From the NCBI GenBank assembly GCA_001695645.1, contig LVZN01000005.1, forward strand, positions 1 to 32,000: 32,000 bases of DNA, given 5' to 3'. The notes under the pieces are model-generated. The model saw only the letters and a list, made by a program, of their open reading frames with translations, made no database searches and was not told the DNA's origin. Source of the DNA: Erysipelotrichaceae bacterium MTC7. Its GTDB lineage: Bacteria; Bacillota_I; Bacilli_A; Erysipelotrichales; Erysipelotrichaceae. Of this stretch, positions 9,067 through 22,828 are shown piece by piece (position 1 is the stretch's first letter; each line of letters starts with the position of its first letter). The position numbers and the translations under genes were made by a program.

Positions 9067-9137
9067 GTAAGTAGAGGTAACAATTATAGGAGGATAGGAT
9101 TTGTAATTGAATGGTGTGTTTACAGGAGGAGGAAATT

Positions 9138-10949
9138 ATGAAAAGAAGAAAGAGAAAGGATTTTAAGTATTCCAATATTCCTAAAATTGTATCCATATTT
9201 GTGATAATTTTAATGGCATTCAGTAGTATGGTGCCAAGAGTATTGTTGGATGTGGAAGAAGAAGATGTTCAATTCAATAATGTTACAACTGAAGAAAAAG
9301 TAAGCGTGACTCGGACAAGCGAGGATAATCAACCACTGGTTCACCTACAAGGTGAAACGCTCCTTGATGATGTTTATGAAATCGAAGTTGCAGCCAAGAG
9401 TACGGGGTTGGAATACCGACCCAAACCAAAGTTTAATGTAGTTTTTGTACTCGATAACTCTGGTAGTATGCAAAGGAGAATTGACTCGCAAACCGATGCT
9501 ATTAAGGGTCAAAGACGACTTGATTACTTGATAAATGATGTAAATACCTTTGCTAAAAAGATACTTGGTTATCAGGAATCAACAGTAAGCGCAGTTAACT
9601 TTTACAATTCAGGGAAGTCAGATGTCATATTCTCGGGTGCAACAACACCAAAACAAGTCGAAGCTGCAATGGTGGAAGGTACTGGAAAGCTCGTTACATT
9701 AGGAGGGACGAATATTTCTGCTGGAATAATCCAAGCAGAAAATGTACTTGATTCTTTAAAAACTTCGCAAACGAATGCTTTTGTTGGATACCACAACGTT
9801 GTGGTAATGATGACAGATGGTCAAATCAATAGTCCACAATATACGTACCCAGAATTAGATAGTTTGCAAAGTTTGGTTAATGCATATAGTCAACGTCTAA
9901 GTGTTTATGGAGTTGCATACTCTACACCAAATATGGATAATGATGGAACGTTCTCAAGATTTAGTAACTTATGGACTTCTGGAAATGCTGGCTATGGACG
10001 AGGATATATGTATGAAGTAAATGCACAAAATAAAGAAAATATGTTTGATGAAATCTATCAACGTATCTCGAAAGTGCAAACAGACGAAATTATGATTGAT
10101 GTTACATTACCAGAAGGACTTGACTTTGTAGAGGAAACTGAGCAACAACCATACACTGTGGATGGAAATACGTTAAAAGCAATAATTTCATATCCTAAAG
10201 ACGGTGTAGAACATTCGTTTAAATACAAAGTGCGAATCAATCAAGAAAAAGTATATGAAATCTACGATAAGAATGTAGAGCGAGAAGAGATTTTCGCGAA
10301 GATTGACCATAATTTCGAGTACAAATTCAGATTACTGAATAAGGAAATTGTGAATGAAAGTGAAAGTTCACAGGAAATATTTGATTATCGTAAGACGAAT
10401 GTTGTACTTGATCTACCAATCTATCGACTCACAACACATGCAATCAACGGAACGATTGGACATGCGCATGGCGTACTTGGTACGGTTGTTGAAAACGCAG
10501 GGTCGAAAGATATTCCTGTCTACGTTGGACGTGGTGCAAGTGGTACATCAGGGTACTGGGTGGATGGTTATGGACCAGATCCAGCAATTGAAGGATTGGA
10601 ATTTGTTCGTTCAACAATTGAACGACCATTCCAAGTTGATGGAAATGAAATGTTTACTACGGACCTTGGATCTCATGAAGTAGAAGGTATCTTTACAGAT
10701 ACACATATTGAAGTTGAGTGGAAAAAGAAAGAAACACCACCGCCAACACCAATACCTGATCCTAAGCCAGATCCAACACCTGACCCAACACCAGATCCAG
10801 TTGAACTACCAAGTATAGCGGTAGTGGAACTACCAAGTGTTGCAACAGGTATGGGCGCACCAGATGTTACGCTACTACCTATGGTGTGGATGGCTGGCGG
10901 GACTGCTGCAGTCATCGTATTAAAGAAATGGAGAGATAAAAAGAAATAG
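9138..10949 (+). CDS. Secreted VWA-domain surface protein with a C-terminal sorting-like signal (LPSVATG + TM + KKWRDKKK)
   Basis: RBS GGAGGAGG precedes ATG 9138; the ORF-track ATG 9111 lacks properly spaced SD. N-terminal basic/hydrophobic signal anchor. MIDAS motif DNSGS at 9453. Pro-rich PDPKPDPTPDPTPDP linker. Hydrophobic segment and basic tail at the extreme C terminus. Confidence 0.85.
   Translation: MKRRKRKDFKYSNIPKIVSIFVIILMAFSSMVPRVLLDVEEEDVQFNNVTTEEKVSVTRTSEDNQPLVHLQGETLLDDVYEIEVAAKSTGLEYRPKPKFNVVFVLDNSGSMQRRIDSQTDAIKGQRRLDYLINDVNTFAKKILGYQESTVSAVNFYNSGKSDVIFSGATTPKQVEAAMVEGTGKLVTLGGTNISAGIIQAENVLDSLKTSQTNAFVGYHNVVVMMTDGQINSPQYTYPELDSLQSLVNAYSQRLSVYGVAYSTPNMDNDGTFSRFSNLWTSGNAGYGRGYMYEVNAQNKENMFDEIYQRISKVQTDEIMIDVTLPEGLDFVEETEQQPYTVDGNTLKAIISYPKDGVEHSFKYKVRINQEKVYEIYDKNVEREEIFAKIDHNFEYKFRLLNKEIVNESESSQEIFDYRKTNVVLDLPIYRLTTHAINGTIGHAHGVLGTVVENAGSKDIPVYVGRGASGTSGYWVDGYGPDPAIEGLEFVRSTIERPFQVDGNEMFTTDLGSHEVEGIFTDTHIEVEWKKKETPPPTPIPDPKPDPTPDPTPDPVELPSIAVVELPSVATGMGAPDVTLLPMVWMAGGTAAVIVLKKWRDKKK
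10758..10799 (+). repeat. Short in-frame tandem repeat encoding the (PD-P-T/K) linker
   Basis: gatcctaagcca/gatccaacacct/gacccaacacca/gatcca, a 12-nt period encoding DPKPDPTPDPTPDP. Confidence 0.6.
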
Positions 10950-11036: not shown

Positions 11037-11045
11037 TGCTATAAT
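11037..11045 (+). promoter_or_regulatory. Orphan extended -10 (TGcTATAAT)
   Basis: A perfect TGnTATAAT lies 56 nt after the preceding terminator. No ORF with an RBS follows it. Confidence 0.4.
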
Positions 11046-11051
11046 TTGTTA

Positions 11052-11225
11052 AAGGGAAGAGATTTTGTCCGCGACGACGTTAAACTATATACAGTTCTTG
11101 TTAGTTTATCTAATAAGATATGCCAACCTTCTCTATCTTCCACACACACACTAAAAAAGGAATTAAGAACATAAAACTTCTAAAAGGTTGGCCAAAAGTA
11201 GCTTCATTCGTGGAGCTGCTTTTTT
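11052..11225 (+). ncRNA. Candidate small RNA or independent non-coding transcription unit (~175 nt)
   Basis: Bracketed by TGcTATAAT (11037-11045) and a 9-bp/T6 terminator (11197-11225). It contains the long-range pairing GCCAACC (11122-11128) / GGTTGGC (11186-11192), a (CA)5 tract and a GC-rich patch GTCCGCGACGACG. The only ORF (11120..11302) runs through the terminator into mutS. No family recognised. Confidence 0.3.
11197..11225 (+). terminator. Intrinsic terminator upstream of mutS
   Basis: AGTAGCTTC pairs with GGAGCTGCT (9 bp including two G-U), loop ATTCGT, T6. Confidence 0.75.
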
Positions 11226-11260
11226 ACAGCAATTTGGGAAGTCGCATAGCTGAGGTTATA

Positions 11261-11269
11261 TGGTATAAT
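11261..11269 (+). promoter_or_regulatory. Extended -10 (TGgTATAAT) immediately upstream of, and overlapping, the mutS start region
   Basis: TGgTATAAT is followed by 7 nt (gacacat) and ATG 11277. The ORF-track ATG 11268 overlaps the -10 hexamer itself. Confidence 0.4.
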
Positions 11270-13808
11270 GACACATATGGAAAATTCAAAAAAACAAGGT
11301 AAAGAAAAGAAGTACACACCGATGATGATGCAATACTTAGAAGTGAAAAAAGGACTTCAAGATTGTATTGTTTTTTATCGTTTGGGTGATTTTTATGAAA
11401 TGTTCTTTGATGATGCAATGGTAGCCAGCAAAGAACTTGATTTGGTCTTGACTGGACGTAATGCAGGTGTTGAAGAGCGGGTACCCATGTGTGGAATCCC
11501 TTACCATGCCGCAACAGGATACATTCAACGGCTAACTCAAAAAGGGTATAAAATCGCGATTGTTGAGCAACTGGAAGAAGCAAGTGCTGGAAAAATCGTA
11601 AAACGTGATGTTGTGAAAATTGTCACTCCAGGAACCATTATGGAAGAAGCGAATGAAAGTCAATCTGGGGTTTATTTAGCAACGATTCATGATTTTAAAT
11701 TTGGATATGCATTATGTTTTTGTGAAATGACATGCGGAGAAGTACTCGCTAAAAGTATTGATCGCGATTTCCAAAGTTTGCAAATGACCTTACTATCTTT
11801 GAATGTTAAAGAAATCGTAATTAATGAAACATTTGATAAAAAGGTAAAAAAACGCTTAGAGGAATATGGAACATTAACCATTTCGTATGAAGAAGATATG
11901 GTTTTGAAACCAGCTTATGAATCGTTGATTGATGTCGATGATGTACAAATTAAAACGAGTTTTGCGATGCTAACAAACTATTTGGAACATACACAAAAAC
12001 GCGAAATGTCACACTTAGCAAAACTTGAAATGTTAGAGGATGATAGTTATCTGCAAATGGACTTTTCGACAAAAGCCAATTTGGAACTATTGCAACCACT
12101 TCGTGTGAATAGTAAGTCGCAAACCTTATTCGGGTTTTTAAATCATACGAAAACGGCACTTGGAGCAAGGTGTTTAAAACAATGGATATCGTATCCGCTA
12201 ATTGATGAAAGAAAAATCAATCAACGGCTGGATGCGATTGCCTATTTAAATGAAAACTTCATTTTGAAAGATGAACTTAAAGAAGAATTAAGTAGTGTCT
12301 ATGATTTGGATCGTTTGGGGGCAAAAATTGCGTATGGAAATGCAAATCCACAAGATGTTCGCAGATTAACTTCAACGCTACTTGCAGCTCCTAAGATTCT
12401 TGAAATCTTCCATGATTGCAAGCAAATGATTGAGGAAGTACAAGTAGATGCATGTGTTGACTTAACGTTAAAGTTGGATGGTATTTTACTAGAGGATGCC
12501 AGCAATAATCCTAAAGATGGAAATATCTTTGTGGATGGGTATGACAGTCAATTGGACGCATATCGAACGATTCAAAGCGAAGCCAATCAATACATTCTTG
12601 ATTTAGAACTTCGTGAGAAAGAAAGAACCGGAATTAACTCATTAAAGGTTGGATACAATCGTGTATTTGGTTACTATATTGAAGTAAGTAGTGCCAACTT
12701 AGGAAAACTAAAAGATGATTTTGGTTATACGAGAAAGCAGACACTAACAAACGCGGAACGTTTTGTTAGCGAAGAACTAAAAGAATTGGAAGATAAAATC
12801 TTGCACGCTAAGGAAAAAAGTGTGCGTCGTGAATATGAACTCTATCAGCTGTTGATGGAAGACATTCGTTTGTTTTTACCAAAATTGCACCAACTTGCTC
12901 GTGCCATTGCAAAAATTGATGCTTTGTATGCACTAAGCGTTGTTGCAGCTAAACCAGGATACATCCGTCCTGTATTTGAAAACAATAACCGTATTCATCT
13001 AGTGGATAATGCACATCCAATTTTGGATGACATGATGAAAAAATCACGCTACGTGACCAATGATCTAGAGATGCAAAATGAAGATAGTATTATGATTATT
13101 ACCGGTCCTAACATGGGTGGGAAAAGTACGTTCATGCGTCAGGTTGCCCTAACGGTGATTTTGGCACAGATGGGAAGCTATGTTCCTGCAAAAGAATGTG
13201 TCTTACCAATTTTTGATAAGATCTTTACGCGCATTGGAGCAAGTGATGATATTATGAGTGGACATTCTACGTTTATGGTGGAAATGATGGAAGCCAATTA
13301 TGCACTGCAAAATGCAACAGATCACTCACTAATTCTCTTCGATGAAATTGGAAGAGGAACATCGACCTATGACGGAATGAGTTTGGCGTATGCAATGCTA
13401 GAATACTTACATGAACACACGAAAGCAAAAACGTTATTTTCGACACACTACCATGAACTTACCTCTTTAGAGGAAACCTACGATGGTATAAAAAACCTGA
13501 CGGTTGATGTCGATGAAGAAGATGGAGAAATTGTTTTCCTTTATAAAATGAAAGAAGGAAAAGCTGATAAATCGTATGGAGTCAATGTTGCTAGACTAGC
13601 TAAACTACCAAATAGTTTGCTAGAAAGAGCAAGTCAAATCCTTGCCAATGTGCAACAAGATGAAGTTGATCTTCATGTAGAAATGAAAGAAGTTATGGTA
13701 AAAGAAGACCATAAAGCGACAGAATTGATCCGCAAGTTGGAACAAGCAAACGTCGAAGAAATGACACCGATCGAGGCATTGTTATTTTTAAATGAACTAA
13801 AGAAATAA
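11268..13808 (+). CDS. mutS: DNA mismatch repair protein MutS
   Basis: N-terminal YTPMMMQYLEVK mismatch-binding motif, Walker A GPNMGGKST, and STHYHEL. The start is ambiguous: ATG 11268 has GAGG 12 nt upstream, and ATG 11277 fits a leaderless geometry. Confidence 0.95.
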   Translation: MTHMENSKKQGKEKKYTPMMMQYLEVKKGLQDCIVFYRLGDFYEMFFDDAMVASKELDLVLTGRNAGVEERVPMCGIPYHAATGYIQRLTQKGYKIAIVEQLEEASAGKIVKRDVVKIVTPGTIMEEANESQSGVYLATIHDFKFGYALCFCEMTCGEVLAKSIDRDFQSLQMTLLSLNVKEIVINETFDKKVKKRLEEYGTLTISYEEDMVLKPAYESLIDVDDVQIKTSFAMLTNYLEHTQKREMSHLAKLEMLEDDSYLQMDFSTKANLELLQPLRVNSKSQTLFGFLNHTKTALGARCLKQWISYPLIDERKINQRLDAIAYLNENFILKDELKEELSSVYDLDRLGAKIAYGNANPQDVRRLTSTLLAAPKILEIFHDCKQMIEEVQVDACVDLTLKLDGILLEDASNNPKDGNIFVDGYDSQLDAYRTIQSEANQYILDLELREKERTGINSLKVGYNRVFGYYIEVSSANLGKLKDDFGYTRKQTLTNAERFVSEELKELEDKILHAKEKSVRREYELYQLLMEDIRLFLPKLHQLARAIAKIDALYALSVVAAKPGYIRPVFENNNRIHLVDNAHPILDDMMKKSRYVTNDLEMQNEDSIMIITGPNMGGKSTFMRQVALTVILAQMGSYVPAKECVLPIFDKIFTRIGASDDIMSGHSTFMVEMMEANYALQNATDHSLILFDEIGRGTSTYDGMSLAYAMLEYLHEHTKAKTLFSTHYHELTSLEETYDGIKNLTVDVDEEDGEIVFLYKMKEGKADKSYGVNVARLAKLPNSLLERASQILANVQQDEVDLHVEMKEVMVKEDHKATELIRKLEQANVEEMTPIEALLFLNELKK

Positions 13809-13821
13809 GAAAGGAGTTCGC

Positions 13822-15660
13822 ATGGCGAAAATTCAAAGATTAGATCCACACTTAACGAATATGATCGCCGCTGGAGAAGTAGTTGAACGACCAAGTGGTG
13901 TCGTTAAGGAATTGGTGGAAAATTCCATCGATGCGCATGCTTCAACCATTCAAGTACATGTACGACAAGGTGGTATTGAAGAAATGATGATTGTTGATGA
14001 TGGTGATGGAATGAGTGCACAAGATGCAACGTTATCCTTTGAACGTCATGCAACAAGTAAAATCAAAGATGTAAAAGACCTTTGGCGTATCTCGACCATG
14101 GGGTTTCGTGGCGAGGCATTACCATCGATTTCTTCCGTTGCCCATGTGGAGTTAAAAACCAATGATGGAACGGATTCGACACTCGTTGAAATCGCCTATG
14201 GAAAAACCATTCATGCCAAACCCATTGGAACACCAAAAGGTACACAAATCTCGGTTAAAAACTTATTTCAACGCACGCCAGCACGCTTTAAACACTTACG
14301 TAGTGCAAGCTATGAGTTTTCACTTGTAAGTGATGTCATACAAAAGTTTGCGCTTGCTTACCCAAGCATTTCCTTTAGCTTGTATCACGATGATAAACGC
14401 ATCTTTCAAAGCAATGGAAATGGCAATATGCAAGAAGTGATGTATCAAATCTATGGTCGTGAAGTGGCTAAAGCTGCCATTGCTGTTAAAGGAAAAGATA
14501 CAGATTATCAAATTGATGGTTACGTCGTACAACCGTTTCAAACAAGAGCAACCAAGTATTACATGTTGTTTTTTATCAACAATCGTATGATTCGTTCTTA
14601 TCGACTACAAAAAGCGATTATGGATGCATATGGTCCATACATTCCAAGTGGACGTTATCCAATTGTCGCTTTGCACATCACGATGGATCCACAATTGGTT
14701 GATGTTAATGTTCACCCAAGCAAATGGGAAGTACGCTTTTCAAAAGAGAAACAATTGGAATATGTAATTAAGGAAACCATCCAAGAAGCATTACGTGAAA
14801 AACTAGAAGTCAATCGTGTCGTAAAACAGGAAAAGCTAGAAATTGAAGCACCAACATTTAACTTTGAAGAAGTAAAAAAGGAAACACCTTCTGTCATCTA
14901 CAAGCAACAAACAGAACCAGAAATACAAGTTGCAGAACCTACAGTCAGATACCAAGAGGTAGTACAGCAAACACCTGTACCTGAAGTTGCTGGTTCAGTT
15001 ACAGTTGAGAAAGATGGGATTGTAAAACCAAGTGTTCAAGTTTCACAAAAGGTTGAACCGGCGAAAGTAAGTAATCCGTCTTTGCCAAAGATGCGTGCAC
15101 TTGCGCAATTGCACAAAGCCTATATTCTTGCAGAAGGTGACGATGGTTTGTATATCATTGACCAACACGCTGCACAAGAGCGTTACAATTTTGAAGTAAT
15201 TAAACAAAAAGTACAAGCAGGAATTAAAGACCAACAAGATCTTTTGGTACCTATCACCCTCACGTCAAACTTACAAGCAGTGAGTAGTGTGGATCAACTC
15301 AATCACACGCTAGAACCTCTAGGTATTCAATTTGAAGTGTTTGGCGACAACAGTTTTGTTGTACGTAGTTTGCCAATTTGGCTTGTACATACAAATGAGC
15401 AAGCATTCTTACAGGATATGGTGGACTTTTATATTAAAAATGAAGAAGTGGATATTGAAGAACTGCGAAAGCATACACTAGCCACAATGGCTTGTCATTC
15501 GTCGATTCGATTTAATCGCTCCTTAAGTTTAGCTGAGATGCAACAAGTGATTACCGACTTGGAGCATTGTGAGCAACCGTTCCATTGTCCCCATGGACGA
15601 CCAACCTTCTTAAAATACACGCTTAAAGATTTAGAGAAAAGTTTTTTACGGGTGAAATAA
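13822..15660 (+). CDS. mutL: DNA mismatch repair endonuclease MutL
   Basis: GHKL ATPase motifs (ELVENSIDA, DDGDGM). C-terminal endonuclease motifs DQHAAQERYNFE, ACHSSIRFN and CPHGRP. RBS AAAGGAG is present. Confidence 0.95.
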   Translation: MAKIQRLDPHLTNMIAAGEVVERPSGVVKELVENSIDAHASTIQVHVRQGGIEEMMIVDDGDGMSAQDATLSFERHATSKIKDVKDLWRISTMGFRGEALPSISSVAHVELKTNDGTDSTLVEIAYGKTIHAKPIGTPKGTQISVKNLFQRTPARFKHLRSASYEFSLVSDVIQKFALAYPSISFSLYHDDKRIFQSNGNGNMQEVMYQIYGREVAKAAIAVKGKDTDYQIDGYVVQPFQTRATKYYMLFFINNRMIRSYRLQKAIMDAYGPYIPSGRYPIVALHITMDPQLVDVNVHPSKWEVRFSKEKQLEYVIKETIQEALREKLEVNRVVKQEKLEIEAPTFNFEEVKKETPSVIYKQQTEPEIQVAEPTVRYQEVVQQTPVPEVAGSVTVEKDGIVKPSVQVSQKVEPAKVSNPSLPKMRALAQLHKAYILAEGDDGLYIIDQHAAQERYNFEVIKQKVQAGIKDQQDLLVPITLTSNLQAVSSVDQLNHTLEPLGIQFEVFGDNSFVVRSLPIWLVHTNEQAFLQDMVDFYIKNEEVDIEELRKHTLATMACHSSIRFNRSLSLAEMQQVITDLEHCEQPFHCPHGRPTFLKYTLKDLEKSFLRVK

Positions 15661-15661
15661 G

Positions 15662-16576
15662 ATGAATAAACAAAAAGTATTGGTTGTCATTGGGCCAACT
15701 GGAGTTGGTAAAAGTAAGATGGCAGTTGCGCTTGCTAAGCAATTTAATGGGGAAATCATTAGTGGTGATGCCTATCAAGTATATAAACAGCTAAGCATCG
15801 GTAGTGCAAAAATTACGCCAAATGAAATGGAAGGAATACCACACTACCTTGTGGACTGTTATGACTATACGGATGATTACAATGTGAAAGTCTTTCAAGA
15901 CCAAGCAAGAATCTACATTGATCAGATTGCCAAAAAAGGTAAATTGCCCATCATTTGTGGTGGAACTGGTTTATATATTAAGGCAGCACTGTATGACTAT
16001 GTATTTGAAGATGAACAAGTTGATCAAGCGTATAGCAAGTATCTAGACACACTTGATTCCCAACAATTGTTTGAGATGTTAGTTGAAGTTGATCCAAAAA
16101 GTGCCAACGTATTACATCCTAACAACGCACGAAGAGTAAAACGTGCTTTACTTATGCACCATGCAGGTACAAAGAAAAGCGAACGCATTGATAAACAAAA
16201 CCATGAACTTTTGTACGATGCAAACATCATCGGTTTAACATTGGAACGTGCCAAACTTTATGAACGAATTGACAAACGTGTCCTGAAGATGATGGATACA
16301 GGATTACTTGATGAAATTCAAACGATTGTAAAAGACAGAAAAACCTTCGATCTACAAAGCATGCGGGGAATTGGCTACAAAGAGTGGCAACCCTATATGG
16401 AAGGCACAGCAACTGCTGAACAAGTTATATCATCCATCCAAAAAAATACAAGAAACTTTGCGAAGCGACAATATACATGGTTTAACAATCAAATGCAGGT
16501 GCACTGGTTTGATATTAGTCAACCAGCTATATATGAAGAAATTACAGAACAAGTATCTTCCTTTCTCAAGGAATAA
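15662..16576 (+). CDS. miaA: tRNA dimethylallyltransferase
   Basis: P-loop GPTGVGKS plus PHYLVD and RQYTWF motifs. It starts 1 nt after the mutL stop. Confidence 0.93.
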   Translation: MNKQKVLVVIGPTGVGKSKMAVALAKQFNGEIISGDAYQVYKQLSIGSAKITPNEMEGIPHYLVDCYDYTDDYNVKVFQDQARIYIDQIAKKGKLPIICGGTGLYIKAALYDYVFEDEQVDQAYSKYLDTLDSQQLFEMLVEVDPKSANVLHPNNARRVKRALLMHHAGTKKSERIDKQNHELLYDANIIGLTLERAKLYERIDKRVLKMMDTGLLDEIQTIVKDRKTFDLQSMRGIGYKEWQPYMEGTATAEQVISSIQKNTRNFAKRQYTWFNNQMQVHWFDISQPAIYEEITEQVSSFLKE

Positions 16577-16614
16577 TACTTGTTTTTTTACGCTTAAACA
16601 TTTGTCCGAAAGCC

Positions 16615-16643
16615 TTTACATAATGTGCAAAATGCATTACTAT
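16615..16643 (+). promoter_or_regulatory. Sigma-A-type promoter of the LRR surface-protein gene (leader A)
   Basis: TTTACA (16615-16620), 17-nt spacer, TACTAT (16638-16643). The -10/+1 region ATGAAAGTGTGG resembles module B (ATGATAAAAGTGTGG). Confidence 0.45.
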
Positions 16644-16649
16644 GAAAGT

Positions 16650-16864
16650 GTGGCATTGGATGTAATTAATGTTTGATTTGCGTGCATTAATTAAGATGAA
16701 TAGATGTATGGGAATTCATCTTAAACTTCAGTGTGGGTGTGAAGTAAGTCGTTTAATTATTAGAGAATACTTACGGGGTAATAATTGAATACTTTTAATG
16801 CAGTTCATTTGTGTGGTACATGGACTGTTTTTTTGTTCTTGTACACATGTGTAAGGAGAACCCT
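16650..16864 (+). promoter_or_regulatory. Long structured 5' leader (A) ending in an intrinsic terminator just before the RBS
   Basis: Hairpins: TAATTAATG/CATTAATTA (16663-16693), AAGATGAAT/ATTCATCTT (16693-16722), ACTTCA/TGAAGT (16725-16745), AATTATT/AATAATT (16755-16786), then the terminator at 16801-16834. The 3' ~75 nt are paralogous to 19335-19417. Confidence 0.55.
16801..16834 (+). terminator. Leader terminator/attenuator A
   Basis: CAGTTCA (16801-16807) pairs with TGGACTG (16821-16827). The apex TGT (16810-16812) pairs with ACA (16818-16820), followed by T7. It lies 30 nt upstream of ATG 16865. Confidence 0.7.
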
Positions 16865-18613
16865 ATGAAAAAAATTAAAATATTTATGGTATTGTCATTG
16901 ATGCTTACCGTGTTTGTAGGATTCATGAATCATGCAACTAACGTAAAAGCAGCAACCCCTGTGATTTGTGAATCAACAGACAATGGAATGTCAATGAAAG
17001 TTGGTGATAAGCTATCTGAGCATATTCCCGACATTGCGTTTGCAAGGTTTGTAATAAAGAATGTGTTGGGTGGTAGTGCTGTAGATCAAACACCCGAGAC
17101 GTATATACTTACCGAACAGGATCTAACAAAGATTTCAAATTATAAAAATATGAATATAACTGCAGACAGTGTGGATGAAAGTTCAAATTATCATGTACAG
17201 TCACTTGAAGGAATCCATAACTTTGAGAATCTTCAAACGTTTCGAATAAGTCAGTCGAAAACGCCATCTGATAGTCGGCTGACATCGCTACCAATGGAAC
17301 TATCACGTTTAAATAAATCATTGATAAGCTTGACTGTTTACAGTAGTGGATTAAAAGAAGTTCCAGATGTAGTGTCTTGTTTAACGAACTTAACAACGTT
17401 AAACTTTGGATACAACCAAATTACAGAAGGCGTAGATAACGTGTTACCATTACTGCAGCTAAAGACCCTGATATTACTTGGTAACTACATTAGTGAAGTG
17501 CCTGCTGGTATTGGGGCATTAACTCAGTTGGATCAGTTATCATTTGCATTTAATCGACTGACAGAAATACCTGAAGAAGTCTACACACTGCCAAATGTGC
17601 GGATCCTTGCATTTGCAACCAATCAAATCACACATATAAATGGCGCTGAAAATATAGTATCTCCAAATCTAACGCAATTCACTCTTGCGTTCAATCAAAT
17701 TGCAGATTTTTCGCCAATCCTTGGGTTAGGTACAGGTGGACAGTTTGCAAACCAGTATCGTATAGCCAAACCAATCATGGTGGAAGAGGGAACAACCGTT
17801 GTTGATGTTGATTTAAAGGATTATGTATTCAATCACATGGGCGCAAGAATTGAGGGAAATGCAGATACAGTATTATATTTTCCTGATATGGTAACGGAAT
17901 TTACGTTCTATGATGTAAATCAATCATATTACTCACATTACAACACACCACGCATTGTGAATAGTGAACGCGAAAATGCGATTACGATTGATCGGAAAGA
18001 AAAGGAAAGTGTTATTAAGCTAGAAATCAAAGAAAATGAACAATTTGGAAGACACGTGATGTTTCGACTTGAAGCAACTGGCGAAAAGACAGATGATTTG
18101 CATAACTGGAGTTCATTTGGTGTTTATAATAACGACATTACGTACATTGTTCCAATCGAAGAATACGTCATTCCAACAACTGGTTATATCGTTCATTACT
18201 GGAAAGATGCAATAGGTACAGGCATAGATCATGAAAACTATCTTGGAACACATCGTAGTGAAGAAATTTATATGAATGGTGATGAAGTTGAACTAAATGA
18301 TGAACTAAAGAATTTATTCCTAAATAAAGATCAGTATTTTGTATTGGATCGTGTTAGTGCAGAGAAACTAACGATTGATATTGAGATACTAGATAACAAT
18401 GTTTTCCATGTCGTATATCGAAGAGACTTACCAGCGATTGCACCTGATCCAGAAGTGAAAGACGAACCAAAAGTAGAACCAAAGCAAGAAATTGTAGGTT
18501 TACCAAGTATTGCCACATATGACACGGTAGATGTATTGTTCTACTTGCTTTTAATCAGTGCCATGTCTGTAAGTATTCTTGTTCTTGTAAAAGCGAAAGG
18601 ACAAAAACGATAA
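16865..18613 (+). CDS. Secreted leucine-rich-repeat (internalin-like) surface protein with a C-terminal sorting-like signal (LPSIATY + TM + KAKGQKR)
   Basis: RBS AAGGAGA precedes ATG 16865; the ORF-track GTG 16811 lies inside the leader terminator. Signal peptide MKKIKIFMVLSLMLTVFVGFMNHATNVKA/A. About 7 LRRs of the LxxLxLxxNxIxEVP type. The C-terminal beta-rich module ends in NNVFHVVYRRD, like the repeats of the 1136-aa protein. Confidence 0.85.
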   Translation: MKKIKIFMVLSLMLTVFVGFMNHATNVKAATPVICESTDNGMSMKVGDKLSEHIPDIAFARFVIKNVLGGSAVDQTPETYILTEQDLTKISNYKNMNITADSVDESSNYHVQSLEGIHNFENLQTFRISQSKTPSDSRLTSLPMELSRLNKSLISLTVYSSGLKEVPDVVSCLTNLTTLNFGYNQITEGVDNVLPLLQLKTLILLGNYISEVPAGIGALTQLDQLSFAFNRLTEIPEEVYTLPNVRILAFATNQITHINGAENIVSPNLTQFTLAFNQIADFSPILGLGTGGQFANQYRIAKPIMVEEGTTVVDVDLKDYVFNHMGARIEGNADTVLYFPDMVTEFTFYDVNQSYYSHYNTPRIVNSERENAITIDRKEKESVIKLEIKENEQFGRHVMFRLEATGEKTDDLHNWSSFGVYNNDITYIVPIEEYVIPTTGYIVHYWKDAIGTGIDHENYLGTHRSEEIYMNGDEVELNDELKNLFLNKDQYFVLDRVSAEKLTIDIEILDNNVFHVVYRRDLPAIAPDPEVKDEPKVEPKQEIVGLPSIATYDTVDVLFYLLLISAMSVSILVLVKAKGQKR

Positions 18614-18648
18614 CAAGGATTAGAATTGAAAGCTCTATAATTATTCTT

Positions 18649-18680
18649 CAGCAGTAACGCTCATGTTGCTGCTGTTTCTT
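18649..18680 (+). terminator. Intrinsic terminator after the LRR gene
   Basis: CAGCAGTAAC pairs with GTTGCTGCTG (10 bp, one G-U), loop GCTCAT, followed by TTTCTT. Confidence 0.7.
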
Positions 18681-18806
18681 ATATAAAATGGCGTAAAGAA
18701 AAAAATATATAGATATTGATTAACTATTATATGATTATAACCATATAATAAGAGGAATAACATTAAAGCAGTATGGTTAATTTATATAGATGGCAAATAA
18801 AATCGC

Positions 18807-18835
18807 TTTACAAGTAAAGTTGACTCTTTTATGAT
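18807..18835 (+). promoter_or_regulatory. Sigma-A-type promoter of module B
   Basis: TTTACA (18807-18812), 17-nt spacer, TATGAT (18830-18835). Confidence 0.45.
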
Positions 18836-18841
18836 AAAAGT

Positions 18842-19033
18842 GTGGATATCATAAAGTATTCATTTGTGTGTGTGTGTTAATGGAGATTCATTTTTCTCGG
18901 AGGGCAATTTCGATAGTAAAAAGGTTTACATGAACACAAAAGAAATTGAAAAACCTCTACAAGAATGTGGCGATATGACACCATGTATCCTTACTCAGAC
19001 AGTTCGTAATTGTGCATTATGAACTGTTTTTTT
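18842..19033 (+). ncRNA. Stand-alone leader-like transcript (module B): candidate sRNA/decoy RNA or small-peptide mRNA
   Basis: A promoter and a strong terminator bracket about 190 nt. The sequence is paralogous to the 5' leader of the downstream adhesin gene, but no RBS or gene follows it. The only ORF is 30 codons (18930-19022). Confidence 0.4.
19000..19033 (+). terminator. Intrinsic terminator of module B
   Basis: CAGTTCGTAAT pairs with ATTATGAACTG (11 bp, one G-U), loop TGTGC, T7. Confidence 0.85.
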
Positions 19034-19138
19034 CTGCAAAAACACAATACCTATTGAAAATAATTAAATATAAATATAAATATTAGTATGGAACAAACGA
19101 TATAATGATAAATTTATATGGTAAGTCAAGGGTATCGC

Positions 19139-19167
19139 TTTACTAAAGTAGAAACATGCTTTATGAT
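19139..19167 (+). promoter_or_regulatory. Sigma-A-type promoter of module C (1136-aa adhesin gene)
   Basis: TTTACT (19139-19144), 17-nt spacer, TATGAT (19162-19167). It is positionally homologous to the module B promoter. Confidence 0.45.
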
Positions 19168-19173
19168 AAAAAT

Positions 19174-19417
19174 ATAGAATATTAAAAATATTCATGTGTG
19201 TGTGCGTTAATAGGGAAATTACAATTATTGGCGGGTATAGAAGGAAGACTATCCCAGGCTTTAATCACTTGAACTGAAGTGATTTTACCAATAGATATCA
19301 ACAGGGATATCCTTTTGTGGACCCAATATTTCTTATCTTTATTAATGCAGTTCATTAGTGTAGTACTTGGACTGCTTTTTTGTATTCCAAGTACCTGTGT
19401 GTTAAGGAGGAAAGAAT
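19174..19417 (+). promoter_or_regulatory. Long 5' leader (C) ending in an intrinsic terminator just before the RBS
   Basis: It contains the hairpins AATCACTT-gaactg-AAGTGATT (19263-19284) and GATATC-aacagg-GATATC (19294-19311), the terminator at 19348-19381, then AAGGAGG and ATG 19418. Confidence 0.55.
19348..19381 (+). terminator. Leader terminator/attenuator C
   Basis: CAGTTCA (19348-19354) pairs with TGGACTG (19368-19374). The apex AGT (19357-19359) pairs with ACT (19365-19367), followed by C then T6. It lies 36 nt upstream of ATG 19418. Confidence 0.7.
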
Positions 19418-22400
19418 ATGAAAGTAAAGGAAAGCACCAGGAAGATATTGATAGGTTTATTAACATTTGTGCTTTTGATTGGAGTGGTTTTTGTAGGAAC
19501 TACACAAAATGCTAGGGCAAATACAGAACGGCCAGTAAAAGGGGATCTTGGGCAATTAAACTCAACAGCTATCTATGGGGAGAAAGACCGTGGAACTCCT
19601 GTAAGCGGAGAACTTGAGTTTACAAATTTTTCAGAAGATGGAAATGTAACAGCAACAAAAAAAATTACTAAACTAGAAAATGGTAAATTCGAAATAACGT
19701 TTACCACAAAAACAAAAAACATTGTAAAATTAACAGAGAAGCAAATCAATGTAGTTATTGTTTTTGATAAAAGTGGAAGTATGAAAAATGAAGTAAAGTA
19801 TTGTAAACAGTATAATCTAAATGATTGCAGAAATAACAAAAATAAAAACGATGGATATACAAAGGAAGTCATTACTAAAGCAAAGTGGGATAATGCAAAA
19901 GCGGGTGTAAACTCACTGGTTGACAATTTGATAAAAACATACGGAAAAGATGTATCAATTCAGTTTGTTACATTTGACAATGGCGCTACAATAAAAACAG
20001 AATCCCCAATATACCAAGAAAATGGTGAAGCTTCAAACAGCACAGATTTGATATATGAAAATGGGAATTACTCTTTTGATAGTGAATTATTTGGAAAAGC
20101 AAATGGTTGGACAAACATCAAAGACGGATTTGATAAAGCAAATACTGCACTTTCGAATGTGACAAACAAGTTTACTGAGGATGAACAAAATATTGTGTTC
20201 CTATTAGGAGATGGTGAACCAAGATTGAGTAATGATCCCGATGCAGCGACTATAGCACATAATGAGGCAGTTACTGCATCAAGCATTGTGAAGAAAAATG
20301 CTACGGTATATACTTTAGGATATGATGTAGAGGTTAACGGGACTGCAGAAAGCAATTTGAAGTCATATGCAACACTAAAGGATAACAAACCGTTATATTG
20401 GGCAGGCAGCATTGATAATATTAAAACGGTAATTCAGTCAATTGTGCGCGCAATAAATGAAGAAGTGACATCAATTGAAGGCATGATTCATGATATGATT
20501 CCTTCATATTTTACAGTAAGTAGTGTCAAAAATGAGTACATAACAAAAACAGCAGATGGTACGGCTGTTAAGATTCCAATGACTGGTGGTGAAGCAGATA
20601 AAGATGGCTATGTTACAGCGACAACAACATTTACAGTTACATTGGATGAATCAAAAGTTTTAGAACCAGGTTGGTATGCAATTAATGATCATTCCAATGG
20701 TCAAGTAAAATTTGTCTATGGAGAAAGTGCATCTGGTTCAAATGACGATGAAGTTGTCATTAAAGCTGCTATTGATGAAGAAAATGAAGGGAATCCGGCT
20801 GTTTATGCATATCCGGAACAAGGCTATATTTTGCGTCGTACATTTGTTGAAAGTGATGGCATAAAAACACCATCGAGACCGGATGTTCAATCTACCACTA
20901 AGTTTATTACTGGACAATCACTCGATAATCAGACGAAGAACATTGCATTTGATGCGAGTCATTTTGAAAATGAAAGCGAATTGTTAGCTGATATTGATGC
21001 AACAGATAATAATGGAGTTGTGATTGGATACTGGAAACACAACCAACAAAATCCTGTTTCGACTACAACAATTACACCAATTATAGAGAACAACGTAGTT
21101 GAAGAAGAATTTGTTTTTGTACGAGAAAAACAAAAATATATCATTAACCATCATATCGTCGATGGAAACGAAGATGAAATTGCTTTAACACAACCTGGCT
21201 TAGGTGAGGACGTATACAAAGAGTTGAATGCGCCTGTCATGATTGAAACAGCAGGTCATGAGTTCCTTGGTGATTCAAGTGCTCCAAATTTTGTTTATCG
21301 CGACCATAAAATTGGTGGTGTGTCTTCAACTGCAAGCACATTCAATATCCAAGCCGATGATAATGCCAACGTAGTAGATGTATATTATGTTCCTCACAAA
21401 TATAAAGATGAGGCACCTTATGTGATTAACTATGTTGATATAACAGATGGTGAAGAAAATGCCACTGCGATTCCTGGAAGCACATCGGAAACAGGGCAAT
21501 TAGGTTATGATCAATCAATTGACTTGAATACTAAACAACATACATTTGCTGGATATTACTATGTTGATACAATCACAACGGATGGAGAAGGTGCAACAAC
21601 GTTGACAGCAATTCGACCTGAAGAAGGCGATGACTCAGCACTAAGTGTAGCGAGTATTCGTTATAAACGTGTGCAAGGAACGTATGCAATTCAAGAACAT
21701 TACCAAGAATTAGATGGTAGTTACTCAGATGAACCAATGAAAGTCAGTGGGTTGTTGAATGCTGGTACAGTAGTGCGTGTCGTGCAAGAAGTAAGTGATC
21801 CGATTGGAGGAGTTATAACTGAGACGGTTACAAATACAAAAGCACAAACACATGAGTTAAATACGGATCTCACAAATCCAGCACTTGGAGACAAGCTAAC
21901 TATTCCAAACACAGGAACTAGTGAACTTGGACAAGTAGTATTCCATGTATATTACAAATTGAAAATGGCACCAGTAGCAGTCGAATATCACTATGATGAT
22001 GGAACAGCTAAGTCAAGACAAGACTTACCAGCTGTGTATGTTACTGGGTCAGCTAATTTAACTCAAGAACATATTGATGCAGGTAACTTGAATGGCTTAT
22101 ATACAACTGATAGCACGCCAGAAACTGTAGCTAATGTAACGAATGATGGTGTAGTATTCCATGTATACTACACAAGAAAAACAGCACCAGTTGTAGTGCG
22201 TTACTATCACGATACTTTCGATAATGATGGATATTTGGGTGAGGACATTATTGCTACGTATAAAGTTGGCGAGTCTGTAAATGCAGCGGATGTAATCACT
22301 GCTAATATGATGGACAAATATCGTCCAGTGAAATATCTAGGAGGAGCATTTATTGGCGAAACGACAGTGGTTGTTAGCGAAGATCCAACCGGAGCATTCA

Positions 22401-22828
22401 ACATTATCTATATGCCAGCACCAGTTGGTAAAGCAACTTATAAGGTAATGTTCTGGTTAGATGAAATTGGAACATCAACTACTAGTGAAAAGTTCATCAA
22501 TCAATACGAAAGCAGTGAATTGTTTGATGAAGGAACACAAATTGATGCTAAAGATATTGATACTGAGCGTTTCCTAACAACTGGACTAATGTTCAAATCT
22601 ATCGATAAAGAATCTTTAGAAATTGTTGCTGATGGGGAAAATGTATTCCATGTTATTTACATAAGTAATGCACCATCAAAAGCACCAGAAACTACAATCC
22701 TTGGACTTCCAGCGATTGCTACAGGTGATGTAAATAATGCGATTGCATACTTAACATTATTACTGTTAGCTGTTAGTGCAGTTGTAGGAACATACAAAGT
22801 AAGAAAAAATAGAAAAAATGAAGCATGA
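19418..22828 (+). CDS. Large secreted adhesin: N-terminal VWA domain + central region + six MucBP-like repeats + sorting-like signal (LPAIATG + TM + KVRKNRKNEA)
   Basis: RBS AAGGAGG. Signal peptide with NARA/NT cleavage. MIDAS DKSGS at 19766. The repeats each end in a V(V/F)(D/H)VYY-type strand. The C terminus is tripartite. Confidence 0.88.
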   Translation: MKVKESTRKILIGLLTFVLLIGVVFVGTTQNARANTERPVKGDLGQLNSTAIYGEKDRGTPVSGELEFTNFSEDGNVTATKKITKLENGKFEITFTTKTKNIVKLTEKQINVVIVFDKSGSMKNEVKYCKQYNLNDCRNNKNKNDGYTKEVITKAKWDNAKAGVNSLVDNLIKTYGKDVSIQFVTFDNGATIKTESPIYQENGEASNSTDLIYENGNYSFDSELFGKANGWTNIKDGFDKANTALSNVTNKFTEDEQNIVFLLGDGEPRLSNDPDAATIAHNEAVTASSIVKKNATVYTLGYDVEVNGTAESNLKSYATLKDNKPLYWAGSIDNIKTVIQSIVRAINEEVTSIEGMIHDMIPSYFTVSSVKNEYITKTADGTAVKIPMTGGEADKDGYVTATTTFTVTLDESKVLEPGWYAINDHSNGQVKFVYGESASGSNDDEVVIKAAIDEENEGNPAVYAYPEQGYILRRTFVESDGIKTPSRPDVQSTTKFITGQSLDNQTKNIAFDASHFENESELLADIDATDNNGVVIGYWKHNQQNPVSTTTITPIIENNVVEEEFVFVREKQKYIINHHIVDGNEDEIALTQPGLGEDVYKELNAPVMIETAGHEFLGDSSAPNFVYRDHKIGGVSSTASTFNIQADDNANVVDVYYVPHKYKDEAPYVINYVDITDGEENATAIPGSTSETGQLGYDQSIDLNTKQHTFAGYYYVDTITTDGEGATTLTAIRPEEGDDSALSVASIRYKRVQGTYAIQEHYQELDGSYSDEPMKVSGLLNAGTVVRVVQEVSDPIGGVITETVTNTKAQTHELNTDLTNPALGDKLTIPNTGTSELGQVVFHVYYKLKMAPVAVEYHYDDGTAKSRQDLPAVYVTGSANLTQEHIDAGNLNGLYTTDSTPETVANVTNDGVVFHVYYTRKTAPVVVRYYHDTFDNDGYLGEDIIATYKVGESVNAADVITANMMDKYRPVKYLGGAFIGETTVVVSEDPTGAFNIIYMPAPVGKATYKVMFWLDEIGTSTTSEKFINQYESSELFDEGTQIDAKDIDTERFLTTGLMFKSIDKESLEIVADGENVFHVIYISNAPSKAPETTILGLPAIATGDVNNAIAYLTLLLLAVSAVVGTYKVRKNRKNEA
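21134..22663 (+). repeat. Six tandem ~70-90-aa protein repeats (MucBP-like) within the adhesin gene
   Basis: Repeat boundaries (aa): 573-657 (...VVDVYYV), 667-750, 755-846 (...VVFHVYYK), 851-918 (...VVFHVYYT), 923-999 (...AFNIIYMP), 1005-1082 (...NVFHVIYIS). Each repeat starts with a Y-x-[IV]-x-[YH] strand. Confidence 0.6.

Follow-up and report, generated by a model that had tools for sequence, protein, structure and literature searches.

Why should genes for surface adhesins carry what looks like a stop signal for transcription between their promoters and their start codons? The question is posed by a stretch of 32,000 nucleotides (nt) of Erysipelotrichaceae bacterium MTC7 (contig LVZN01000005.1, positions 1-32,000 of the forward strand; hereafter the window), in which a hairpin followed by a U-run stands just upstream of two genes for surface proteins. 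In the original prediction, both hairpins were read as one conserved intrinsic terminator inside the mRNA leader. The place and time at which gut bacteria attach depend on adhesins, the control of which in the Erysipelotrichaceae is essentially uncharted. When the copies are aligned together, the hairpin turns out to be the 3´ end of a larger conserved leader of ~200-250 nt, found in MTC7 and in Breznakia, and we propose, with about as much confidence as doubt, that the hairpin and U-run are the terminator of a transcription-attenuating leader common to an adhesin regulon.

Hairpin, U-run and leader anatomy

The two copies, A and C, lie on the + strand at 16789-16864, before the gene for a 582-aa LRR surface protein (ATG at 16865), and at 19335-19417, before the gene for a 1136-aa VWA surface protein (ATG at 19418). 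Their sequences, their T7 and T6 runs and their common fold were reproduced as predicted. A 33-nt core, TTAATGCAGTTCATTNGTGTNGTACNTGGACTG, with three free positions has exactly two matches in the window, at 16795 and 19342, where none is expected (100 shuffles), and the 42-nt cores of the two copies are 90% identical. In both, a lower stem of 8 bp is followed by a 2-nt bulge, an apex of 3-4 bp and a small loop. In copy A, the hairpin (16800-16828; GCAGTTCA..TGGACTGT, apex TGTG/TACA) is followed by T7 at 16828-16834, folds with -9.4 kcal/mol (z-score -2.0) and scores 66.7 bits with R1, a covariance model of the 3´ module; in copy C, the hairpin (19347-19375) is followed by T6 at 19376-81, folds with -11.5 kcal/mol (z-score -2.8) and scores 78.1 bits. 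Across the family, the stem reads GCAGUUCA...UGAACUGU and is followed by U6-7; in all seven aligned copies, the lower stem is fully (100%) paired and directly abutted by the U-run, as in an intrinsic terminator, with energies that are modest even when the -14.4 kcal/mol of a third window copy, B, is included. The four differences between copies A and C are as originally described, including the apparent compensatory swap in the apex (T16810:A16820 versus A19357:T19367). This swap is a base pair in copies A and C only; the position is unpaired in the other five of the seven aligned copies.

The placement of the hairpin inside the leader was likewise borne out. Only 30 nt (A) and 36 nt (C) separate the U-run from the ATG, leaving no space for a promoter, and promoter-like sites are found ~215-245 nt upstream on the strand of the gene: TTTACA-17-TACTAT at 16615-16643 for copy A, the -35 and -10 elements of which are in register with those in the six other leader promoters, and TTTACT-17-TATGAT at 19139-19167 for copy C, which aligns with the other leader promoters as well. 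By sequence, this is the arrangement of a leader attenuator. We also note a motif, (A/T)TTTATAT(A/G)G, ~14-20 nt 5´ of the -35 element in six of seven leader promoters, copy A being the deviating one (approximate sites: window 16590-16602, 18783-18791 and 19114-19122; Breznakia-like assembly L001 9711-9719, 12104-12112, 14558-14566 and 18632-18640). It may act as an UP element or bind an activator common to the leaders.

The leader occupies ~220-250 nt in the window, ~185-215 nt of which precede the stop signal. From 5´ to 3´, it consists of the promoter, a hairpin P1, a GU repeat with box 1, a variable insert, a pre-terminator segment, the terminator with its U-run, a segment S3, a second GU stretch, the Shine-Dalgarno (SD) sequence and the ATG. 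P1 of copy C (GAATATT-AAA-AATATTC, 19177-19193) illustrates how this stem varies while its pairing is kept (GAAUAUU/AAUAUUC, GGAUAC/GUGUCC, GAAUAC/GUAUUC, GAAUACU/AGUAUUC and GAACACGAA/UUCGUGUUC). In copy C, the GU repeat (19195-19204) and box 1 (TGCGTTAATAGGG, 19203-15) form a block at 19195-19215, recognized in folds and alignment, that is 95% identical to its Breznakia orthologue. Copy A is the most divergent of the family and has no GU repeat at its box 1 (TGCATTAATTAAG, 16683-16695); a GU-rich site is found instead at 16731-16744. The insert is 90-120 nt long, is different in every copy and folds into hairpins, two in most copies. At the 3´ end of the leader, the second GU motif adjoins the ribosome-binding site: in copy A, a GU-rich stretch, the SD sequence AAGGAG (16853-58) and the ATG lie within 16847-16867, and in copy C, a GU repeat (19396-19402), the SD sequence AAGGAGG (19404-10) and the ATG lie within 19395-19420. 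The GU-repeat boxes, like the orphan copy B and the long-range helix described below, were absent from the original prediction.

Two side observations concern the GU boxes. In the L001 leader of a gene for a 477-aa protein (18895-18992), a GU box and AGGAGG are followed by a 5-codon mini-ORF (MKNYE; ORF, open reading frame), and a second SD sequence lies ~80 nt past the mini-ORF, 5´ of the annotated start. In addition, the 3´ untranslated region of the Breznakia VWA661 gene (L001 14397-14423; L020, that is, B. blatticola DSM 28867, 13646-13653) carries GU repeats, GTGTGTT..TGTGTTGTGTGTGTT, directly past the stop codon and 5´ of its terminator.

Box 1 and the pre-terminator segment are the two strands of P2, a 13-bp long-range helix that abuts the terminator. 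Their family sequences are UGCGUUAAUAAGG (box 1) and CUUUAUUAAUGCA (3´ strand). In copy A, box 1 pairs with CTTTTAATGCA at 16792-16802 (8 bp, a 2-nt bulge and 3 bp; RNAalifold consensus and pair counts), and in copy C the 3´ strand is CTTTATTAATGCA at 19337-19349 (RNAalifold consensus, folds and pair counts). Given nine copies and no prompting, RNAalifold returned P2 together with the terminator, and minimum-energy folds of the single sequences of copies C and Lg1-Lg4 contain P1, P2, the insert hairpins and the terminator. P2 is 92% paired, compared with 38-64% in slid controls. The two strands could in principle be a DNA palindrome recognized by a transcription factor. This is disfavoured, because the two mismatches that are conserved would be G.U pairs in the transcribed strand; moreover, the folds recover the helix, and one flanking pair switches from A-U to U-A in three copies. 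The end of the P2 3´ strand and the start of the terminator stem have the trinucleotide GCA in common, so that the border between the two helices is uncertain by 1-3 bp.

Copies, conservation and distribution

The leaders belong to an adhesin island, each gene of which has one upstream, and which is flanked by housekeeping genes, mutS-mutL-miaA on one side and ispF-gltX on the other. The genome is that of MTC7, the LRR protein being 100% identical to A4S06_07560, and its nearest relative is Breznakia blatticola (MiaA 72% identical). The adhesin genes of the island encode LP[SA][IV]AT[GY] sorting signals and specify putative sortase substrates; a protein search with the 1136-aa VWA protein returned only the protein itself. 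There are three leader copies in MTC7, one of them an orphan, and six plus one remnant in Breznakia. In L001, where the island has a syntenic order (miaA, LRR654, VWA661, VWA1211, 477-aa, ispF), the same leader occupies all four intergenic regions, before the LRR gene, two VWA genes and the gene for the 477-aa protein of unknown function, genes that are non-homologous or barely homologous. B. blatticola DSM 28867 has it before two genes, and one truncated remnant marks the place where the LRR gene was lost. The remnant (L020 10915-11250) joins promoter, P1 and box 1 (10986-97) of the leader to the final codons of the LRR gene and its terminator; the LRR deletion is a second gene loss in the island, besides that at the orphan unit B.

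Between the genera, box 1 is 71-95% identical and the block of pre-terminator segment, terminator and U-run is 80-81% identical, whereas the leader interior reaches 49-53%, the adhesin coding DNA 55-60% and the miaA and mutL genes 74-78%. The terminator is accordingly conserved far above chance and above the level of the coding sequence, as originally claimed. Recent duplication or gene conversion without function was ruled out as an explanation: the blocks are conserved between genera while the downstream genes are not all homologous and the adhesin proteins of MTC7 and Breznakia are just 31-51% identical, so neither process is sufficient alone.

The same figures bear on the possibility that a metabolite or second-messenger riboswitch uses the terminator as its expression platform. 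Sortase-anchored adhesins controlled in this way have a precedent in the c-di-GMP-II riboswitches of Clostridioides difficile (PMC11477304), and the leader has a suitable length (~200-250 nt) and a closing helix, P2, beside the terminator. The region enclosed by P2 is, however, the least conserved part of the leader, with different hairpins in each copy and no conserved ligand pocket. Nor was a family recognized, in agreement with the original statement that this is no known riboswitch or leader: at the gathering threshold, Rfam 15 gave a tRNA as its sole match over the window, and permissive searches gave nothing relevant at E up to 10 (16500-19500) or at E up to 1 (L001 3900-19100). A riboswitch is on these grounds extremely unlikely.

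The orphan unit B (18807-19033, + strand) has no gene downstream. It comprises a promoter (TTTACA-17-TATGAT, 18807-35), P1 (18844-61), a (GU)6.5 repeat (18865-77), box 1 (18873-85) and a perfect 14-bp hairpin (18997-19029) followed by T7, with the core copy at 18994-19035 (R1 match E = 0.01; fold -14.4 kcal/mol, z -4.8). The promoter-to-terminator module is evidently able to stand alone. This raises the question of whether the module is itself the gene for a family of sibling small RNAs (sRNAs) of ~185-215 nt, which would act in trans, e.g. as sponge or decoy for a CA-repeat RNA (see below) or for a protein, and whose function the conserved blocks would serve, while the adhesins would be expressed by constitutive, unregulated leakage through a weak terminator. 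Listeria and Enterococcus have established examples of trans-acting sRNAs derived from riboswitches and leaders. Unit B, which no gene follows, exceeds all other copies in promoter match, GU-repeat length and terminator strength, the terminators before genes being weaker. Against a sibling sRNA family stands the finding that S3 and the second GU box, both 3´ of the terminator, co-evolve with it, which is sensible only for read-through transcripts. Furthermore, eight of ten copies and remnants directly precede an adhesin ORF, and unit B sits in a slot that in Breznakia holds a gene, VWA661, with its leader. Because of this slot, and because B. blatticola has a comparable truncated remnant, unit B may be a relic. 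We regard a family of sibling sRNAs as distinctly unlikely and retain the attenuating leader as the preferred reading.

The leader family is, as far as sequence searches reach, narrow: MTC7 and B. blatticola-like strains, with about seven independent copies. A scan for the pattern TTAATGCAGTTCAN{12,22}CTGYTTTTT over the genomes of 185,579 species (one per species) and over JGI metagenomes gave B. blatticola as the sole real match, the other 10 matches being chance occurrences without leader features. R1 found the known copies only. In relatives with 61-64% MiaA identity, located by MiaA synteny, either the island was absent or another adhesin gene had a plain upstream region of 123 nt without a leader.

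Several features of the island and its surroundings may be recorded here. The sorting signals at 18520-18560, 22730-22760 and 10850-10900 are LPSIATY, LPAIATG and LPSVATG, and Breznakia has LPAIATG and LPSVATY in addition; the LPxxAT[GY] variant, in place of the canonical LPXTG, suggests a dedicated sortase class. A gene for a 612-aa VWA adhesin (window 9090-9140) lies between rpsR and mutS, a position at which Breznakia has no orthologue. It lacks leader and terminator and keeps GGUGUGU just 5´ of its SD sequence (AGGAGGAGG). A strain related to MTC7 and carrying the island is represented by ENA ERZ15185563 NODE_50 (L028), with one identical flavodoxin-like protein and differences in the other proteins compared. 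At 15403-17636 of this contig, ~7 kb past the right end of the window, a LytTR response regulator gene, a gene for a 435-aa protein without Pfam match and a 30-codon ORF form an Agr-like layout. In B. blatticola (L020 926-2717), a Macro-domain gene and a DarT gene, a toxin-antitoxin or defence pair of the DarTG type, lie between ispD and rpsF; they are found in neither MTC7 nor L001.

Proposed mechanism and candidate partners

The original prediction also paired the 3´ half of the hairpin (S2) with the segment just 5´ of the SD sequence (S3), and this pairing was confirmed. It is 9/9 in copy C (GTACTTGGA at 19363-19371 with TCCAAGTAC at 19386-19394), where it is present in the minimum-energy fold of 19342-19419, and imperfect in copy A, where S3 (TTCTTGTAC, 16836-16844) is complementary to 16816-16824. 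Judged by its substitutions, S2:S3 is the best-supported helix of the leader and is under selection. It is 97.8% paired, with G-C replaced by A-U in two copies and U-A by C-G in one, a result reached by 4 of 500 shuffles; in Breznakia, S3 follows changes in the loop and apex of the terminator (at loop positions in Lg3 and Lg4), and when partners were exchanged between copies, just 2 of 720 permutations paired as well as the cognate set. Significant covariation is seen in S2:S3 and not in the terminator, the lower stem of which is invariant or shows one-sided changes only; for the terminator as a whole, 344 of 500 shuffles do as well.

A role for S2:S3 as an antiterminator has to be abandoned. 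Located 3´ of the U-run, the helix comes too late to stop termination and can have an effect on read-through RNA only. A second possible role, that of a switch unmasking the SD sequence, was also rejected as inconsistent: refolding frees the SD sequence in three of six copies (A, C and Lg3) and not in Lg1, Lg2 and Lg4, with the opposite effect in one and no effect in two. These results have to be set against the idea that the hairpin and U-run do not terminate in vivo, and that a bistable pair of folds, S1:S2 (the hairpin) and S2:S3, acts on mRNA stability or on translation initiation, e.g. as a standby site or RNase target. Such a role would agree with covariation that favours S2:S3 over the terminator, with the near-equal energies of the two folds in the isolated 3´ module and with stems that are AU-rich and interrupted. 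It fits poorly with the retention of U6-7 abutting an 8-bp stem in all copies, with the perfected hairpin of copy B, which lost everything downstream, and with the inconsistent effect on SD accessibility; we consider it quite improbable.

For the attenuating leader, we propose the following sequence of events. Transcription would start from the conserved TTTAC(A/T)-17-TATGAT promoter, P1 would form in the nascent RNA, and the GU repeat followed by box 1 would be exposed. The two-hairpin insert would then fold, after which box 1 and CUUUAUUAAUGCA would close the 13-bp P2. As P2 continues straight into the terminator stem, both would contend for GCA at the terminator base, near the U-run. Whatever occupies the GU repeat and box 1 during the ~110 nt until P2 closure would set the frequency at which polymerase stops, the best candidate being a CA-repeat small RNA and the alternative an RNA-binding protein. 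In read-through RNA, the terminator 3´ half and loop would re-pair with the co-evolving S3, dissolving the terminator hairpin and leaving the second GU recognition motif at the ribosome-binding site. The sequences show the anatomy of the leader, its conservation, its helices and the lack of room for a downstream promoter; conditional termination is our inference from them, as are the direction in which control acts and the factor involved. Attenuation through a leader peptide was rejected, since no ORF of at least 10 codons is common to the copies and only 1 of 37 has an SD-like sequence upstream.

The candidate CA-repeat RNA is complementary to the GU boxes of the leaders. On the + strand, repeats of at least 7 nt are nearly confined to the leaders (in L001, GTGTGTG has 13 matches compared with 3.8 expected), and the sole long complementary CA repeat lies 5´ of mutS, at 11131-11150 of the window. 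It is embedded in a block, GCCAACCUYCUCUAUCUUCCACACACAC, conserved in MTC7, L001 and B. blatticola, and in the last of these the block still adjoins mutS despite three genes inserted upstream of it. A conserved extended -10 element (TGnTATAAT) lies 5´ of the block on the + strand, and a terminator-like hairpin with U5-6, different in sequence between the genera, lies 3´ of it. In MTC7, these elements outline a candidate trans-acting sRNA-like unit of ~170 nt at 11037-11225, with the extended -10 element TGCTATAAT at 11037, a putative RNA at 11053-11225, the conserved seed CUCUAUCUUCCACACACACAC (11131-11150) in a hairpin loop that shows CUUCCACACACACAC, and a terminator hairpin with U6 ending at 11225. 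The unit has no Rfam match. Its counterparts lie at ~4073-4249 in L001 and ~5380-5555 in L020, so that it is present at the same site in all three leader-bearing genomes; upstream of mutS in L022, L023 and L027, relatives without leaders whose sequences reach mutS, the block is not found. The versions of the two genera share one fold, in which the CA repeat lies in the loop (unpaired probability 0.81-0.86) and the closing stem shows a compensatory change (CCAACCUU/AAGGUUGG versus CCAACCUC/GAGGUUGG). As a side observation at this site, a conserved TGGTATAAT box (window 11246-11270; L001 4286-4300) ends 7 nt 5´ of the mutS ATG (ATATGGTATAATGNCACATATGG) without an SD sequence; mutS looks leaderless, in the same layout in MTC7 and Breznakia.

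The predicted duplexes between this RNA and the leaders are bipartite: the CA repeat binds the GU repeat, and the end of box 1 that is rich in purines binds CUCUAUCUU (e.g. AAGGUAGAGGA in Lg1). Their energies are -20 to -28 kcal/mol. A second site is predicted at the GU repeat and SD sequence of C, Lg2 and Lg4. When targets were ranked, leader tiles came top among non-self tiles in both genomes, by a small margin over a background that reaches -22 to -23 kcal/mol. Co-folding with the RNA joins the GU repeat to the CA loop and leaves P2 and the terminator in place, the latter longer by about one base pair. The RNA is not a cis-encoded countertranscript, as it lies ~5.5 kb upstream on the same strand and is partly complementary. 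That it regulates the leaders is, from these predictions, possible but doubtful. A more ambitious scheme, in which the trans-encoded RNA (11053-11225) would govern the whole island, with GU/box 1 pairing setting termination, GU/SD pairing blocking translation and unit B serving as a sponge, we hold to be unlikely.

A sequence-specific RNA-binding protein could take the place of the sRNA, reading box 1/P2 and the GU repeats and setting both termination and translation. It would resemble LicT and SacY, PyrR or TRAP. Both strands of P2 are conserved in sequence as well as in pairing while P1 and the insert vary freely, as fits a recognition site; box 1 and the ribosome-binding site have a GU-plus-purine motif in common; and the TTTATATRG motif common to the promoters suggests a dedicated regulon. 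However, no gene for an RNA-binding regulator lies in or beside the island in the three genomes, and neither a candidate protein nor a hairpin like the ribonucleic antiterminator (RAT) or ANTAR elements over the terminator 5´ arm could be identified. The folds contain no such hairpin, the window and the Breznakia loci contain no PRD or ANTAR gene, and an ANTAR gene in L022 belongs to a relative without leaders. We consider control by such a protein unlikely.

Several observations weigh against the attenuating leader and its candidate partner. The hairpins of copies A and C are weak, a simple terminator scanner called copy B only, and the terminator is conserved without significant covariation. 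P2 and the terminator overlap by just 2-3 nt, and the fold boundary between them moves by ~1 bp whether or not the sRNA is included. Inspection by eye only revealed no conserved helix that would act as an antiterminator on the terminator 5´ arm; TGAACTG at 19271-77 fits the 5´ arm of copy C, and the same inspection showed no equivalent in copy A or the Breznakia copies. The leaders yielded no conserved antiterminator helix, leader peptide or ligand pocket. The failure of S2:S3 to free the SD sequence in half of the copies counts here as well, as does the thin sampling of two lineages and about seven independent copies. As to the sRNA, GU/CA complementarity is of low complexity, copy A reaches just -20 kcal/mol where background tiles reach -22 to -23, and the simple scanner made no call for its promoter or its terminator.

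Comparison with known systems

The leader places several unrelated surface-protein genes behind one promoter type and one structured leader, such that a single signal could switch the whole adhesin set. Its architecture, with a long-range helix at the terminator, a co-evolving segment acting after read-through and duplicated GU boxes, is uncatalogued, and its general reach is limited by the narrow lineage of MTC7 and B. blatticola-like strains in which the family is found. To our knowledge, sRNA-driven transcription attenuation is documented essentially only for cis-antisense RNAs, on plasmids and for single genes. If the CA-repeat RNA were the trigger, RNA-driven attenuation would be extended from plasmid copy-number control to a chromosomal regulon.

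Antisense-RNA attenuation is exemplified by RNAI/II-repC of pT181, RNAIII of pIP501 and the system of pAMbeta1. In Shigella, the antisense RNA RnaG drives attenuation of icsA, the gene of a surface virulence protein (PMC2879508). The leaders resemble these systems in having a terminator just 5´ of the ribosome-binding site and a 5´ target site, the occupation of which is proposed to be decisive, and they resemble RnaG-icsA in that the controlled gene encodes a surface protein. The antisense RNAs, however, are cis-encoded and fully complementary, act on one gene and use a preemptor helix over the terminator 5´ arm, whereas the candidate RNA proposed here lies ~5.5 kb away, is partly complementary and would act on several genes through a P2 overlap of 2-3 nt.

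A closer parallel in biology is provided by the c-di-GMP-II riboswitches upstream of the C. difficile adhesins CD2831 and CD3246 (PMC11477304). There, too, several genes for sortase-anchored adhesins of a gut Firmicute are under the common control of a 5´ leader that contains a terminator. The leaders described here differ in that they match neither the c-di-GMP-I nor the c-di-GMP-II model, and the unconserved interior of P2 makes a ligand pocket unlikely.

The proposed control at two levels, by a terminator and by refolding near the SD sequence, with a conserved recognition sequence near the terminator, is reminiscent of the Bacillus subtilis trp leader with TRAP and of LicT and SacY with their RAT elements. 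TRAP controls both the trp terminator and the SD sequence of trpE. Unlike these, our leaders have no (G/U)AG repeats, RAT-like hairpin or candidate protein, and the effect of S2:S3 on the SD sequence is inconsistent.

Small RNAs acting on mRNAs of surface proteins include RNAIII, which acts on spa in Staphylococcus aureus, and FasX, which acts on pilus mRNA in Streptococcus pyogenes. In Listeria, LhrC represses lapB by pairing at the ribosome-binding site (PMC8079631). Like LhrC, the candidate sRNA displays in a loop a pyrimidine-rich motif complementary to the SD region of mRNAs for cell-wall-anchored adhesins, with more than one site per target. Unlike LhrC, it is a predicted RNA, its seed would be a CA repeat with CUUCC/CCUCC rather than UCCC, and it would have an additional upstream site at a terminator-linked helix.

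Having no Rfam match, conserved ligand pocket, cis-antisense transcript or RAT/ANTAR hairpin, the leader is a member of none of these systems. It seems to represent an undescribed switch that turns adhesin production on and off.

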